Shown piece by piece: positions 1 through 10,087 of a DNA stretch of 10,087 bases. A program made the position numbers and the translations under genes. This stretch comes from a virus (lineage: Duplodnaviria; Heunggongvirae; Uroviricota; Caudoviricetes): positions 1-10,087 of IMG/VR virus record IMGVR_UViG_2737471839_000018, one strand, 5' to 3'. Positions within the stretch are counted from its first letter, which is position 1, and each line of letters begins with the position of its first letter. The notes beneath the pieces were generated by a model. The model did no database searches. It had not been told where the DNA came from and was given only the letters and a program-made list of their open reading frames with translations.

Positions 1-251
1 GGTCATGGCCTCCATAGTGATGGCGGGTCCTCCTTGTGGGGTGCCCTGCCACGGGGCGGGAGCATCGCGGAAAAAGGCTAGTTTTTGCATTTTTATTCGT
101 CATCACCACCAATGCAATATATTGATATGACTTGATGTTTTATTTTTCGGTGTCGATTTCGATTGTTTTTTGTTCATCACTGACGCATAACGCCCACCAG
201 CGCAACGCTGAAAGCCAGTCAGTAAACTGGCTTCGGTCATTGTGCACTACG

Positions 252-794
252 TTACTTGTCTTTATCCGGCTGAAACTTATCAGGCACATTTCCGGTAGTT
301 TCCATCAGATAATCGGACAGCATTCGCGGGATGTTTTCATCAAGTTTTGTGCATGCGTTACAGGCTCTGACAACTTCTTTTTTCAGGCCATCCAGCATGG
401 CGGGGGTCATCTGTGGGAAGCTCCTTTGCATAGTAAGCGGCAGGCTGCCCATGATTGAAGAAATCTGACTCGCCAGTTTTGAAAGCGCATATATACAAAA
501 TTCCGTACTAATCACATCGCCGCGTTCGCTCTCGTTTTTAAGCTCCTGCGCCTCCGCCTGCGCTGTCAGCAATCTGATCCTGACTCGCAAAAGCTCATCA
601 TTATCAATCTCTCCTTTGTCGTTTGTAAGCTGGTTAATTGCATTGTTAACCCTATTGTCTATCACGCTGGCAACATCATAAAACGCCTCACGGCCTTTAC
701 GCTCAACGGGAGTCACTCCCCACTTGTCGAATGCTGTAGCACTTACCCGGCAGCTTTGCGCCATGGTTTTTTTGTTCATCAGGTGCGATTTCAT
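252..794 (-). CDS. Small terminase subunit, lambda Nu1-like (TerS)
   Basis: Translation has the segment RLLTAQAEAQELKNESERGDVISTEFCIYALSKLASQISSIMGSLPLTMQRSFP...KLDENIPRMLSDYLMETTG, which matches lambda Nu1 as I recall it (RLTRAQADAQELKN...AFCTFVLSRIAGEIASILDGLPLSVQRRFP...LDELIPGLLSEYIEQSG). The N-terminus (NKKTMAQSCRVSATAFDKWGVTPV) resembles the Nu1 winged-HTH region. The ORF-track start at 797 is TTG; ATG codons are at 794 and 779, and 779 (MNKK...) aligns best with Nu1 MEVNKK. Stop TAA at 252-254. Confidence 0.85.
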   Translation of the reverse strand: MKSHLMNKKTMAQSCRVSATAFDKWGVTPVERKGREAFYDVASVIDNRVNNAINQLTNDKGEIDNDELLRVRIRLLTAQAEAQELKNESERGDVISTEFCIYALSKLASQISSIMGSLPLTMQRSFPQMTPAMLDGLKKEVVRACNACTKLDENIPRMLSDYLMETTGNVPDKFQPDKDK

Positions 795-821
795 CAATAT
801 CCCAACTTGGTCAAGGTTTCA

Positions 822-896
822 GGTTGGTGTGTTGGTGTTATCTTTCCCTTTTTATTCATGGAGATAGAGCAAACAACAAAACCACCACCACCACCC
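822..896. repeat. Candidate cosB-like repeats between cosN and the terS start: tandem GGTTGGTGT/GTTGGTGTT (822-839) and (ACC)5 tract (881-896)
   Basis: Direct repeats seen in the sequence at the position where lambda carries its R-sites and IHF site. The sequence is unlike the lambda cosB R-sites as I remember them. Function is inferred. Confidence 0.3.
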
Positions 897-927
897 TGAA
901 AAAGCTCATAAATAGCGAAAAACCGCG

Positions 928-939
928 AGGTCGCCGCCC
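928..939 (-). other. Lambda-type cohesive end site cosN (12-nt overhang sequence)
   Basis: Plus strand 928-939 reads AGGTCGCCGCCC, the lambda right-end cohesive sequence. The minus strand reads GTTACG GGGCGGCGACCT CGCGGTTTTTCGCTATTTATGA, nearly identical to the lambda left end for about 35 nt, then diverges. Orientation is cosN, then cosB, then terS, as in lambda. Confidence 0.8.
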
Positions 940-971
940 CGTAACAGGTCCATATGCCGGAAAGGACCCGC

Positions 972-997
972 AAAAAAGCCGGATTTCTCCGGCCTTT
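972..997 (-). terminator. Rho-independent terminator ending the capsid operon (hairpin also usable from the plus strand)
   Basis: Stem GCCGGA (978-983), loop TTTC, stem TCCGGC (988-993). Flanked by A6 on plus (T6 on minus) and by CTTTTCT on plus. Sits immediately after the stop of the 137-aa gene at 1000. Confidence 0.7.
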
Positions 998-999
998 TC

Positions 1000-7593: not shown

Positions 7594-7666
7594 GTGTTGA
7601 ACACCAATTTAAGCCTAGGTGTTAAACACGTCAAGTGTTGAACACTTATTTTTTTTCCTGCATACT
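7594..7666 (+). promoter_or_regulatory. Operator cluster (three GTGTT(G/A)AACAC palindromes) overlapping a sigma70-like promoter for the RHH-like gene
   Basis: Palindromes at 7594-7604, 7619-7629, 7635-7645 (centre spacing 25 and 16 bp). -35 TTGAAC (7638-7643) lies inside the third palindrome, then a 17-bp spacer and -10 CATACT (7661-7666). RBS AAGGGG and ATG at 7696 follow. Confidence 0.55.
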
Positions 7667-7695
7667 GCATTTGTTTTTTGTAAGGGGTACACAAC

Positions 7696-7875
7696 ATGGC
7701 GACAAAAGCAGTAAACGCAAAATCACAAACAGTTGCGGCAAGGGTTCCGCATGAAGTTATGAACAATGTTGAGGCGGTAAAAATGCCTGGTGAAAGTACA
7801 GGGCAGTTTGTAACAGCAGCATTAAAGCGAGAAGTTGAATACCGCCAGCGTCGCAAGGCCAAAGAGCAGGAGTAA
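7696..7875 (+). CDS. Small putative DNA-binding regulator (59 aa), ribbon-helix-helix-like
   Basis: ATG at 7696 with SD AAGGGG about 9 nt upstream. Translation MATKAVNAKSQTVAARVPHEVMNNVEAVKMPGESTGQFVTAALKREVEYRQRRKAKEQE has a strand-helix-helix pattern. Below the 60-aa cutoff of the ORF track. Divergent from the replication operon. Confidence 0.55.
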   Translation: MATKAVNAKSQTVAARVPHEVMNNVEAVKMPGESTGQFVTAALKREVEYRQRRKAKEQE

Positions 7876-7932
7876 CCATCACCAGCGCCGTGGTGCGGTG
7901 AACTGTGGCGCACAGGGTTACAGGTATCTACG

Positions 7933-8112
7933 ATGACTGACAAATCATTAAAGAAATTATCCTCATCCAAGAAAAAACAACGCAAAAATGCGGTAAACGA
8001 ACATGAACCGGAGAGATTCGCACCATGTGCGTTTGTCCTTGAGAAGTACCTTAAAGAGTATTCTAGGAAAATACGCTCATTGCAGGCATGGCAGCGAATC
8101 GAGCCAGACTGA
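7933..8112 (+). CDS. Possible small basic protein (59 aa); weak call
   Basis: ATG at 7933, stop TGA at 8110-8112, in the same frame as the RHH-like gene. Weak SD. Lys/Arg-rich N-terminus. No homology recognised. Confidence 0.25.
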   Translation: MTDKSLKKLSSSKKKQRKNAVNEHEPERFAPCAFVLEKYLKEYSRKIRSLQAWQRIEPD

Positions 8113-8222
8113 TAGCATTGCCCACCAGCCAGCAAATCGCTATGATGTTCGGGCTTATGTTTAGTGTTTTCCCATTGGCGACCGCCCCCGGTCGCCTTTG
8201 TTTTATGTGTCATATGCTCCCC

Positions 8223-8432
8223 CTACGCTGCCTTACCTGAATTAATACGATCCCGGCTTTTAACCCATTCCATAACCTCAGACTTAACCCAGCCAACCGA
8301 ACGACCGCCAAGACTGATACGGGAGGGAAAGCGGCCTTGTTTTTCCATCTCATAACGAGTTGTACGGCAAACGCCTGTTAGCTCTCTGCATTCTTTTTCA
8401 CGGATTACACGATCTTCATTTATTTCGCGCAT
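8223..8432 (-). CDS. alpA: AlpA/Vis-family phage transcriptional regulator (69 aa)
   Basis: Translation from ATG 8432: MREINEDRVIREKECRELTGVCRTTRYEMEKQGRFPSRISLGGRSVGWVKSEVMEWVKSR. The LTG...T.Y...G.FP...LGGRSVGW...E...W pattern is the AlpA family HTH. The ORF-track start at 8561 is TTG and adds an implausible extension. Confidence 0.8.
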   Translation of the reverse strand: MREINEDRVIREKECRELTGVCRTTRYEMEKQGRFPSRISLGGRSVGWVKSEVMEWVKSRDRINSGKAA

Positions 8433-8848
8433 AAAAAGCCCTACATAAAATTTACGTATAGAAATTTTTGTTTCGCTGTGGATATACGGGAAGGAATACT
8501 TCTTAGCTTCTTTCACCTCTAAAATTGAATACGTAACCTTTCTGAACTTTATGTTCGTCAAAGTTCGCTAGAGTTTGCTGCTGTTCATAAAATCGTGTCA
8601 CGAGTTTTTAAGCGACGCAACAAAAAATGTCGTAATTTGGCATGACACTTAAATCATCTCATTAAAAACAAATAGATAAACCATCAGATGTTGGAATAAT
8701 CAAGAAACAGAGAATAAGAACTCAGAAGAAGACATTTCAATTTTTTCGATGGTTGACACATATAAAGTGAAGATATTTGCAGATATTTTCGATATTCTAC
8801 GATTTATTCACGGCTGTAATCTCTTAAAGAAAAAACAGCCGTAATTTG

Positions 8849-10087
8849 TCAAGAATTTTGGGTGTAAATTCGCGGGGTCATAACAACGATTTTTTCATCA
8901 TTGTTCTGGAGAAGCTCGAGACGGTCTACCCATAGATTAAGAGCATCACGTTTTGCATCAAGATAGCGGGAGTGGTTATAGACTCGTTGCATCCCTGGCA
9001 TCTGGTGGGCTGTAAGCTGCTCGACAATATGCGGATCCACGCCTAAATCGTTCAGCATGGTTGTAAATGTGTGCCGGATATCGTGTAACGTCCAGGGTGC
9101 TTGATTAATTCGTCTGTGCGCTGTTCTTCCGTACTCTGCTACCGAAGATTGTCCTTTCAGTTCACCAAGCAATAAGCCCGTGTGTCTGTTCTGCTCCACC
9201 AGTTGCGTGACGAACGGTAAAATCCCCTCTGGTATTGGCCTGAATATGGCCACCTTCGTTTTGCTGTGTTCCTTCGGTACGATCCAGAGCATTTCTTCGA
9301 AGTTCCACTCCTGCACGCAAGAACGTCGTATCTCAGTGGTGCGACATCCAAAGACAATCAGGAGACGAATTAAGGAGCTGTAGTACTGCGGGAAGATTTT
9401 TTCATCCAGTGCTCGGAGTAGTTCTCCAAGCTCTTTGTTTGTCAGTACACGCTCACTTATTTCTGCTTTTTTCCCCACATCACCGACAACCATATCATCA
9501 AGAACGTTGCTGATTGCGTATCGTCGTTTTCGGCAGTACTTAAGCGCCTGTTTACATACCTGTAGCAAAAATCCGGCAGATACTGGGCTTCGCTTTGCCA
9601 TCTGGTCAAAACAGGCCAACCAGTGCCGTAGCTCGCATTTTTCCAGTGGCATAGCGCCAATCTGGCTAATTATGTGTTTATTGATCCGGCTTTTCAGTGA
9701 TTCGTAGTCAGTGCGCTTTTCCTTTGCGTACGATTCAAGCCAGTAAGTGAGCGCTTCCTTAACCGTCACGGGGGCTAACGCGTCCTGTACAGCATGATTA
9801 AGTTCATAGCGCGGATTTTTACCCTCAGCCAGCCAGGCGCGACACTGTGCCGCTTTTTCCCTAGCAGCTTTCAGGCTCAGATCGGGATAATTGCCCAGCC
9901 TCAGACGTTCCGGTGATATCTGCCTACCAGTTCCGGCCCTGTAAGTGAAATACCAGGTTAACAGGCCATTGGTTGAATGCCTTACGCTAAGGTTGCCACC
10001 ATCATTAAAAAAGGTGTTTTTTGTGGTTGGTGATCCGCTTAATTTTCGTAAAAGAGTGTCGCTAAGTCTATGAATTGCCCTGCTCAT
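8849..10087 (-). CDS. int: Tyrosine recombinase / P4-type integrase (start codon at the window edge)
   Basis: 412 aa. N-terminal arm-binding-like region (NDGGNLSV...WYFTYR) and C-terminal catalytic motifs (HDIRHTF, then ...RVYNHSRY). ATG at 10085-10087 is the last codon of the window, so a longer N-terminus cannot be excluded. Integrase followed by alpA in the same orientation is the CP4-57/P4 arrangement. Confidence 0.9.
   Translation of the reverse strand: MSRAIHRLSDTLLRKLSGSPTTKNTFFNDGGNLSVRHSTNGLLTWYFTYRAGTGRQISPERLRLGNYPDLSLKAAREKAAQCRAWLAEGKNPRYELNHAVQDALAPVTVKEALTYWLESYAKEKRTDYESLKSRINKHIISQIGAMPLEKCELRHWLACFDQMAKRSPVSAGFLLQVCKQALKYCRKRRYAISNVLDDMVVGDVGKKAEISERVLTNKELGELLRALDEKIFPQYYSSLIRLLIVFGCRTTEIRRSCVQEWNFEEMLWIVPKEHSKTKVAIFRPIPEGILPFVTQLVEQNRHTGLLLGELKGQSSVAEYGRTAHRRINQAPWTLHDIRHTFTTMLNDLGVDPHIVEQLTAHQMPGMQRVYNHSRYLDAKRDALNLWVDRLELLQNNDEKIVVMTPRIYTQNS

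Follow-up and report, generated by a model that had tools for sequence, protein, structure and literature searches.

The DNA stretch analyzed here, called the window below, comprises 10,087 nucleotides (positions 1 to 10,087 of the IMG/VR virus record IMGVR_UViG_2737471839_000018) and runs from the start codon of an integrase gene (int) to just beyond a small terminase gene (terS), which is most of an island of approximately 11.5 kb. The best explanation of this island as a whole, including the packaging route that we infer for it, is a phage-inducible chromosomal island (PICI) of the classical Gram-negative kind that belongs to the EcCICFT073 family, to which we assign a probability of roughly 85%. 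One real difference separates it from EcCICFT073: just after cosN, the cosB-rpp segment of that island is swapped for another cosB and a complete small terminase (TerS). The initial annotation had proposed a possibly distinct or under-described lineage; the element is instead of a kind already known and present in public assemblies, and is neither new nor under-described.

The limits and size of the island were obtained by aligning the empty site of Escherichia coli K-12 to two occupied genomes, in which the island measures 10.6 to 11.5 kb. The attachment (att) core is a 21-bp duplication, ATAGATGATAGTTAT(C/T)TATCA, at the 3' end of yljB. The island has macAB-cspD-yljB as neighbors on the int side and clpS-clpA on the opposite side, as in the empty K-12 site. 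The window is identical (100% over 10,087 bases) to positions 10001 to 20087 of ABZFPS010000002.1, the source contig from an E. coli assembly (GCA_050807645.1; locus L006), and attL lies about 170 bp outside it, at the yljB 3' end. A search for direct repeats in that contig found no att, because the flank examined stops about 100 bp before attR. Extending the DNA on both sides, as the initial annotation had advised, yielded the 21-bp repeats, but the tRNA or tmRNA target that it had also suggested looking for is not there: the tRNA scan gave no gene, and the att site is a non-tRNA one. Among the loci examined, which do not constitute a survey, only islands of the window type occupy yljB/clpS, and the integrase protein itself is encoded in many E. 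coli assemblies at NCBI.

Within these limits, the island has the layout of a PICI. The integrase gene stands at one end, and all genes lie on the minus strand save two small plus-strand genes between alpA and an Icd-like gene. An AlpA-family regulator gene lies beside int, a primase-replicase gene has an iteron origin directly 3' of it, a capsid-morphogenesis gene is present (Phage_cap_E, 97% identical to c1499 of EcCICFT073), and a small terminase gene adjoins the cos site, all within an att-flanked element in the range of 10 to 15 kb. Family matches were taken from Pfam, NCBIfam, and PHROGs, with hidden Markov model scores well over the curated cut-offs. The integrase, AlpA, primase-helicase, TGTTCACC iterons (nine against 0.28 expected), and single-stranded DNA-binding protein (SSB) that had been recognized from the letters are all present and significant, and the lambda-like gpE, gpD, cosN, and Nu1 assignments passed the profile searches proposed for them with scores far over the cut-offs (Phage_cap_E, 1.6e-51; HDPD, 2e-18; Phage_Nu1, 3.4e-21), the cosN match being exact. 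In the att-bounded island, read whole in three loci (L006, L001, and L002), there is no portal, protease, large terminase (TerL), tail, or lysis gene, and its called genes include no cI/cro or Q. The absence of portal, protease, and TerL genes noted earlier for the window therefore holds for the entire island.

These observations also bear on whether the window could be a decaying remnant of a lambdoid prophage that came to lie beside an integrase by chance. Its lambda-family head genes and lambda cos would suit such an origin, and elements of this kind have historically been annotated as cryptic prophages. We nevertheless regard it as hardly credible, as the att repeats are exact and the K-12 site is cleanly empty, the gene order (E, D, Nu3-like, cos, Nu1) is unlike that of lambda, the open reading frames (ORFs) are intact, with constant lengths and low ratios of nonsynonymous to synonymous substitution (dN/dS), and hundreds of genomes carry this module, with different att sites and integrases. 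Beside the head genes, there are none of the immunity, Q, lysis, TerL, portal, or tail genes of a lambdoid prophage, and the flanks are the cspD/macAB and clpS/clpA genes. The initial view of the element as a satellite, rather than part of a prophage, is thus sound.

The comparison with catalogued satellites places the island in the family of EcCICFT073, the classical PICI prototype from E. coli CFT073 (Fillol-Salom et al. 2018 ISME J; 2019 Mol Cell), for which helper-dependent induction, packaging, and high-frequency transfer, as well as interference with the helper, have been shown (PMC6092414). EcCICFT073, read from NC_004431.1 (locus L004), is of similar size (about 11 kb) and has the same gene order: int, alpA, an opposite-strand YlcI pair, an Icd-like gene, a DUF4222 gene, pri, the iteron origin, a small ORF, SSB, PerC, a 68-aa ORF, capsid, gpD, a 137-aa ORF, and cos. 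In both islands, cos is followed by a packaging-specificity gene and then by an ORF of 93 (EcCICFT073) or 94 aa. Protein identity to EcCICFT073 is highest in the head genes (97% for the capsid protein, against c1499, and for the gpD homologue, against c1500; 96% for the 68-aa protein; 93% for the 137-aa protein) and in SSB (96%), followed by the 81-aa ORF (88%), PerC (83%), the integrase (76%), the plus-strand YlcI pair (61 to 63%), AlpA (56%), and the primase (49%). At the DNA level, identity is 94% across window positions 3277 to 898 and stops about 30 bp past cosN. The two islands agree fully or almost fully in cosQ, cosN, and the right flank. Their integration sites differ, being roxA/phoQ for EcCICFT073 and yljB/clpS for the window island. 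Since a published element of 2018 has the same gene order and head proteins 97% identical, the proposal of a separate lineage has to be set aside. In that work, c1499 was already named a "putative capsid protein" and c1500 a "head decoration protein" (PMC6092414).

The divergence after cosN is the feature that calls for closer description. The cos site (800 to 969, minus strand) was delimited by an alignment anchored on cosN that included lambda, N15, CFT073 prophage 4, and cos1 of EcCICFT073. It contains a lambda-like cosQ, GGGTCCTTTCCGG (957 to 969), and the exact lambda cosN, GGGCGGCGACCT (928 to 939), which lies 134 bp upstream of terS and is the sole cosN of both the window and the source contig. 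The right flank of cosN is conserved to position 906, with 22 nt common to lambda. After cosN, the window reads GGGTGGTGGTGGTGGTTTTGTTGTTTG and then enters the 180-aa TerS. The candidate cosB comprises (GGT)4 at 882 to 896 and TTTTGTTGTTTG at 870 to 881, both on the minus strand. Four other TerS-type islands have this cosB in conserved form, and it carries a TTGTTGTTT run resembling the one in the short cosB of N15. At the same place, EcCICFT073 has a cosB with ACCACCACC and GTGACACCACCACCAC, followed by the 144-aa RppA, whereas the window island has (GGT)4 and then TTGTTGTTT as cosB, followed by the 180-aa Nu1-type TerS. The element ACCACCACC is the "R3-PICI" element proposed for Rpp-type islands (positions 55 to 63). 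We also observed that (GGT)4 of the TerS-type cosB, at cos positions 44 to 58, is the reverse complement of ACCACCACC, and that the EcCICFT073 counterpart of the cosB element lies at about 14600 to 14625 of L004. EcCICFT073 has, in addition, a second, inverted cos (cos2), unlike the window island with its single cosN. A second inverted cos downstream of terS or rpp was seen in the islands of O157:H7 (L014, position 11788), Nissle 1917 (L015, position 11788), and CFT073 (L004, position 15309); the cosB of the second cos in Nissle 1917 is plainly similar to the cosB of CFT073 prophage 4, which is phage-21-like.

The terS gene (252 to 794, minus strand) encodes a full-length Nu1-type protein of 180 aa (Pfam Phage_Nu1, 3.4e-21; phrog_57, 4e-50), which has 46% identity to N15 gp1, 34% to Nu1 of lambda, and 32% to the CFT073 prophage 4 TerS. 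In a multiple alignment, it is collinear with phage TerS proteins from end to end. Over the 44 aligned residues at its N terminus, identity to N15 gp1 is 57%, and its C-terminal motif LDExIPxLLxDY aligns with the lambda and N15 proteins (KLDENIPRMLSDYLMETTG against ALDELIPGLLSEYIEQSG in lambda), a region that RppA does not have. In lambda Nu1, the C-terminal region binds TerL, and the Rpp proteins, with published lengths of 139 to 154 aa, are without such a region (PMC9026076). The window protein thus differs from the Rpp type, defined by 139 to 154 aa, a winged helix-turn-helix, and no TerL-binding C terminus; the window does have the combination that goes with Rpp-type islands, in which a cosQ and a cosN of lambda type precede a cosB unlike that of phages, but with (GGT)4 in place of ACCACCACC. 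Since the Nu1-like C-terminal region is kept, the window TerS would recruit the helper TerL directly, instead of retargeting the helper TerS as the Rpp of EcCICFT073 does (PMC6739421).

The position of the gene suggests another way in which it could act. As the window TerS occupies the rpp slot after cosN, it might work as Rpp does, forming a heterodimer with the helper TerS and retargeting it, and not as an independent small terminase. Rpp and TerS have the same DNA-binding fold, and Rpp has been proposed to derive from TerS (PMC6739421); furthermore, TerS dimerizes through its N-terminal domain (PMC9026076). We hold this possible but unlikely, since the window protein is full length (180 aa against 139 to 154 aa), keeps the C-terminal region that binds TerL in lambda Nu1 and is missing from Rpps, and has no BLASTP similarity to RppA.

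With direct recruitment of TerL as the preferred reading, the life cycle of the island can be proposed largely by analogy with EcCICFT073. A lambdoid helper would induce alpA, the integrase and AlpA would excise the island, and Pri with SSB would replicate it from the iteron origin. The helper TerL would then cut the concatemers at cosN, positioned there by the island TerS, whose N15-like DNA-binding domain is predicted to read the island-specific cosB and whose Nu1-like C terminus would recruit the helper TerL, as the TerS of Staphylococcus aureus pathogenicity islands (SaPIs) does, in competition with the helper TerS. The DNA would be packaged into helper-made, phage-sized heads. Four island copies of 11.5 kb amount to about 46 kb and would fill one head, which fits the phage-sized packaging of EcCICFT073. 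Lambda-type heads take roughly 75 to 105% of 48.5 kb. EcCICFT073 itself is packaged as phage-sized DNA by a cos mechanism, with lambda and phi80 as helpers (PMC6092414).

The genes upstream of cos form a head cassette of four members. The first, a 68-aa ORF (orf68; 2828 to 3034, minus strand), matches phrog_3255 (2.8e-36), has no match in Pfam, NCBIfam, or PADLOC, and overlaps with its stop the start of the capsid gene. A pairing of orf68 with lambda W, a protein of the same length, was rejected after BLASTP found nothing. The second gene (1773 to 2828, minus strand) encodes a 351-aa major capsid homologue of the lambda gpE family (Pfam Phage_cap_E, 1.6e-51), 44 to 47% identical to the capsids of a phage collection, the closest being those of Gifsy-1, phage 21-like phages, and N15. 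The third (1426 to 1761, minus strand) encodes a 111-aa head decoration homologue of the lambda gpD family (Pfam HDPD, 2e-18), with 38 to 45% identity to phage D proteins.

The fourth gene (orf137; 1000 to 1413, minus strand) encodes a 137-aa protein related to the scaffold region of Nu3/gpC-type proteins. BLASTP aligned it with residues 416 to 493 of the S49 protease/scaffold protein (gpC/Nu3 analogue) of CFT073 prophage 4, the helper of EcCICFT073 (35% identity, E=6e-9), a match confined to approximately the 80 C-terminal residues of that protein. It also matched positions 493 to 567, the C-terminal end, of the head-maturation-protease profile phrog_53 (2e-8). A motif is common to orf137, lambda Nu3, and N15 gp6, and hhalign gave E=0.0017 at a low probability (15%). 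Direct BLASTP pairing with N15 gp6, which has the same length, gave nothing, and the link with Nu3 surfaced only through the prophage 4 S49 protein and the PHROG profile. The AlphaFold2 model is all helical, with a low mean pLDDT confidence score (49.6). No deeper alignment was available, since all homologues in the protein database are E. coli sequences more than 80% identical to it. We therefore identify orf137, with moderate confidence, as a Nu3-like scaffold-domain protein.

The cassette is bracketed by three copies of a terminator hairpin on the minus strand, GCCGGAG(A/C)AATCCGGC followed by a T-run, which stand after perC (3611 to 3628), after a 74-aa ORF (3248 to 3265), and after orf137 (979 to 996). 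The third copy, GCCGGAGAAATCCGGC with its T-run, closes the cassette just upstream of cosQ. At 3062 to 3093, about 30 bp upstream of orf68, there is a perfect palindrome with 14-bp arms (AATCATAACTGGAT GAAC ATCCAGTTATGATT) and then a T-run, which could be a terminator or an operator. Across five islands, the lengths of all four cassette genes and of terS are constant, and dN/dS ranges from 0.04 to 0.3 for the capsid, gpD, orf137, and terS genes (0.06 to 0.17 for the capsid and 0.12 to 0.18 for terS), with higher values for orf68 (0.2 to 0.76). The head cassette is thus maintained by purifying selection, although no laboratory phenotype is known: deletion of c1499 or c1500 left the transfer and interference of EcCICFT073 unchanged (PMC6092414).

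This contrast raises the question of whether the island could be a reduced capsid-forming satellite, whose capsid, decoration, and Nu3-like scaffold proteins would assemble, on the portal of a helper, into a small shell that matches the island in size, to be filled by means of the island TerS and the helper TerL, perhaps with coassembly of helper proteins, given the right helper. The scaffold-like, capsid, and decoration genes are coinherited as a terminator-bounded cassette under purifying selection, and the PICI capsids form lineages of their own, with 55% identity between cassette types and 41 to 47% to phage capsids. Moreover, the capsid homologue Ccm of SaPIbov5 redirects capsid size, as cited in PMC6092414, and by our own rough volume scaling, a lambda-type head of T=3 size would hold 11.5 kb. 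If it were true, conservation of the cassette despite its dispensability with lambda, phi80, and CFT073 prophage 4 would be explained, and TerS-type islands would be an evolutionary link between Rpp-type PICIs and capsid-forming PICIs (cfPICIs). We nonetheless give this idea little credence, because EcCICFT073, with genes 97% identical, showed no such activity: with lambda it packages only phage-sized DNA, and the deletions named above had no effect (PMC6092414). The cfPICI paper likewise states that the EcCICFT073 family is packaged in large capsids (Alqurainy et al. 2023), and there is no portal, protease, or connector gene in the island.

Several points weigh against the assignment to the EcCICFT073 family with direct TerL recruitment, and they are gathered here. 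The recruitment of TerL by TerS is read from an alignment, and the satellite life cycle of the island from EcCICFT073. A phmmer search of TerS against PDB sequences gave nothing significant (best E=0.063, with unrelated proteins), which leaves the DNA-binding fold of the N terminus an assumption. Among the papers searched, none was found that tests a TerS of Nu1 type from an E. coli PICI. The scores behind the Nu3-like assignment of orf137 are moderate (6e-9, 2e-8, and 0.0017 at 15%), and public names conflict with it, as the protein is "hypothetical" in RefSeq and some NCBI records of its homologues read "phage head-tail connector protein." The connector name may be wrong, given that the sequence evidence favors a Nu3/gpC C-terminal scaffold domain.

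The exchange of modules observed here extends to other islands. Using megablast with at least 80% query coverage, we counted 716 carriers of the cos-terS module among 5426 complete E. coli genomes, at three integration sites; they include O157:H7, with the island at roxA-phoQ, and Nissle 1917, with the island at tRNA-Pro. The rppA module, at the same coverage and sensitivity, was found in 97 genomes, a count that is a lower bound for Rpp, as megablast would miss divergent RppC and possibly RppB. The GB089-type islands (L005 and L001) have 98.5% of the int-SSB segment and 99% of the cos-terS segment in common with the window. Their head cassette (equivalent to window positions 971 to 4026) encodes a capsid of 346 aa, a D protein of 113 aa, and an AlpA-like helix-turn-helix protein of 127 aa that replaces orf137, and they are without PerC, the 74-aa ORF, and orf68. 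Their capsid is 55% identical to that of the window. This value between cassettes, the flanks at 98.5 to 99%, and the distance from phage capsids show that the capsid genes are old satellite-specific lineages exchanged as cassettes. The exchange points lie near the repeated terminator hairpin and cosQ, and the repeated hairpins may have been the recombination points.

The remaining genes are those of integration, regulation, and replication. The first gene of the island encodes a P4-type tyrosine integrase of 412 aa (8849 to 10087, minus strand; Pfam Phage_integrase, 3e-17; Arm-DNA-bind_3, 1e-16). The AlpA-family regulator/excisionase of 69 aa (8223 to 8432, minus strand) matches Pfam Phage_AlpA (2e-17) at residues 50 to 100 of a longer ORF; the program-made ORF extends to 8561, and gene calls in identical contigs give 69 aa. 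The plus-strand pair consists of a YlcI/YnfO-family gene (7696 to 7875; NCBIfam NF041551, 2e-16) and a 59-aa gene (7933 to 8112) with a PHROGs match, the two corresponding to phrog_949 and phrog_21027, and is followed by a strong terminator hairpin found by the terminator scan (8177 to 8196, plus strand). The Icd-like protein of 67 aa (7293 to 7496, minus strand; NCBIfam NF033153, 1.8e-19; phrog_6196, 9e-45) is annotated likewise in relatives. A 306-aa ORF at 7293 to 8213 (minus strand) is called in several public assemblies; it is probably spurious, as it overlaps the Icd-like gene and the two well-supported opposite-strand genes and has no family match. In the gap between the Icd-like and YlcI genes (7497 to 7569, plus strand), Rfam gave a SymR antitoxin RNA match (E=0.004) of 32.8 bits, below the gathering score of 61, which may be due to chance. 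It was the sole result when the window and the island's unannotated tail were scanned against Rfam, and nothing reached the gathering score.

Upstream of pri lie a 106-aa ORF (6980 to 7300, minus strand) and a DUF4222 gene (6674 to 6973, minus strand; Pfam DUF4222, 4.8e-17), and phrog_15327 matches within this gene pair (6674 to 7300; 2.5e-71). The primase-helicase (pri-rep) of 605 aa (4860 to 6677, minus strand) matches Pfam D5_N, DUF5906, and Pox_D5, as well as the DNA primase family phrog_864 (1.6e-192). Directly 3' of it, the AT-rich replication origin (4625 to 4852) has eight TGTTCACC iterons in both orientations; the nine copies in the whole window were reached by none of 200 shuffles. 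The iteron stretch contains the repeat families D1, D2, D4, and I1, and its GC fraction falls to 0.40. A position 3' of pri is also the published one for the origin of Gram-negative PICIs (PMC6092414). An 81-aa ORF (4327 to 4572), SSB (3920 to 4330; Pfam SSB, 5.5e-17), a PerC-family regulator (3635 to 3907; Pfam PerC, 3e-42), and the 74-aa ORF (3285 to 3509) follow, all on the minus strand, with a phrog_1957 match within the PerC/74-aa ORF region (3285 to 3907). PerC homologues on E. coli PICIs have been reported to leave the expression of LEE (locus of enterocyte effacement) virulence genes unaffected or to repress it (PMC11773190), and the PerC-family regulator is a possible host-relevant cargo. 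Among ten small proteins (the ORFs of unknown function plus the PerC, Icd-like, and YlcI proteins), PADLOC found no match to a defense system.

Outside the window, the sole further called gene of the island is the 94-aa ORF (phrog_1561), accompanied by about 1 kb without called genes. The stretch from this ORF to attR (L006, 20373 to 21239) has no called gene, no Rfam match, and patchy similarity to other PICIs, and it is identical in the examined islands that encode exactly the same integrase protein (L001, L005, and L008). This gene-less DNA near attR may hold integrase arm sites or decayed cargo.

The integration and replication genes have a bearing on the description of the window as an unusual mosaic of a P4-type backbone and a lambda-type head module. 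A P4-like satellite that acquired a lambda head module would account for the P4-type integrase with Arm-DNA-bind_3, AlpA, the D5_N/Pox_D5 primase-helicase, and the Icd-like gene. A P4-type integrase, AlpA, and an alpha-like primase-helicase are indeed present, but they do not discriminate, being common to PICIs; SatelliteFinder likewise treats int, alpA, and primase as common to P4-like elements and PICIs. No window protein has a Pfam or PHROGs match to Psu, Delta, Sid, or Epsilon, so the island is not classed as P4-like. Packaging is based on a lambda cos, in contrast to the P2-type cos of P4, and the closest whole-element relative is EcCICFT073. A P4-like origin is, in our view, very improbable.

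These results emphasize that the discovery value of the window is small, since this type of element has been experimentally described since 2018, is detectable by standard satellite-finding software, and occurs in roughly one of eight complete E. coli genomes. In future scans, a set of int, alpA, and pri together with lambda E, D, and Nu1 genes within about 10 kb is best assigned to the classical PICIs of E. coli. The exchange of TerS for Rpp after cosN provides a natural pair for testing the packaging specificity of Gram-negative cos PICIs, and it bears on the origin of Rpp, a question raised in the Rpp paper (PMC6739421). Additionally, the head cassette, which is under purifying selection, now seems to include a Nu3-like scaffold-domain protein beside the capsid and decoration proteins.

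Among the known systems, the island agrees most directly with the PICI model of SatelliteFinder, which rests on five core components, namely, int, alpA, pri-rep, capsid morphogenesis, and terS (Moura de Sousa et al. 2023). SatelliteFinder lists 375 elements with all five components, 97% of them in E. coli. Judged from the published definition, the window would belong to PICI "Type A," as it has all five components in the canonical order and no forbidden ones. Since the window holds exactly this set, the P4-type backbone with a lambda-type head module corresponds to the canonical layout of a classical E. coli PICI and is not an unusual mosaic. The premise of the initial annotation that classical Gram-negative PICIs lack capsid genes is also contradicted, given that capsid morphogenesis is a core component and that, of 29 reference Gram-negative PICIs, 21 have a capsid gene (PMC10111431).

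The likeness to cfPICIs noted in the initial annotation stands in part. The cfPICIs (EcCIEDL933; Alqurainy et al. 2023) and the window island are alike in the int-alpA-pri half and in having their own capsid and TerS genes. However, cfPICIs additionally encode a portal, a maturation protease, head-tail adaptor and connector proteins, HNH, and TerL, besides forming small capsids of their own. None of these cfPICI-specific genes is among the called genes of the att-bounded island, and for this reason it is not a cfPICI.

With regard to phages, the island resembles N15 in its TerS (46% identity to gp1), in the N15-like GTTGTTGTTT of its cosB, and in a cos close to the terS start, and lambda in its identical cosN, with 34% identity between TerS and Nu1. 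Unlike in N15 and lambda, there is no adjacent TerL gene, and the sequence and spacing of cosB match neither phage. The SaPIs differ in headful (pac) packaging, an unrelated TerS family, Ppi and CpmAB, and a Gram-positive host, whereas the window island has cos packaging with a Nu1-type TerS and no identified function like that of Ppi. As far as PMC6739421 describes them, the pac-type SaPIs with their own TerS nevertheless follow the same logic that we propose here, in which the satellite TerS would read the satellite site and the TerL of the helper would be used.

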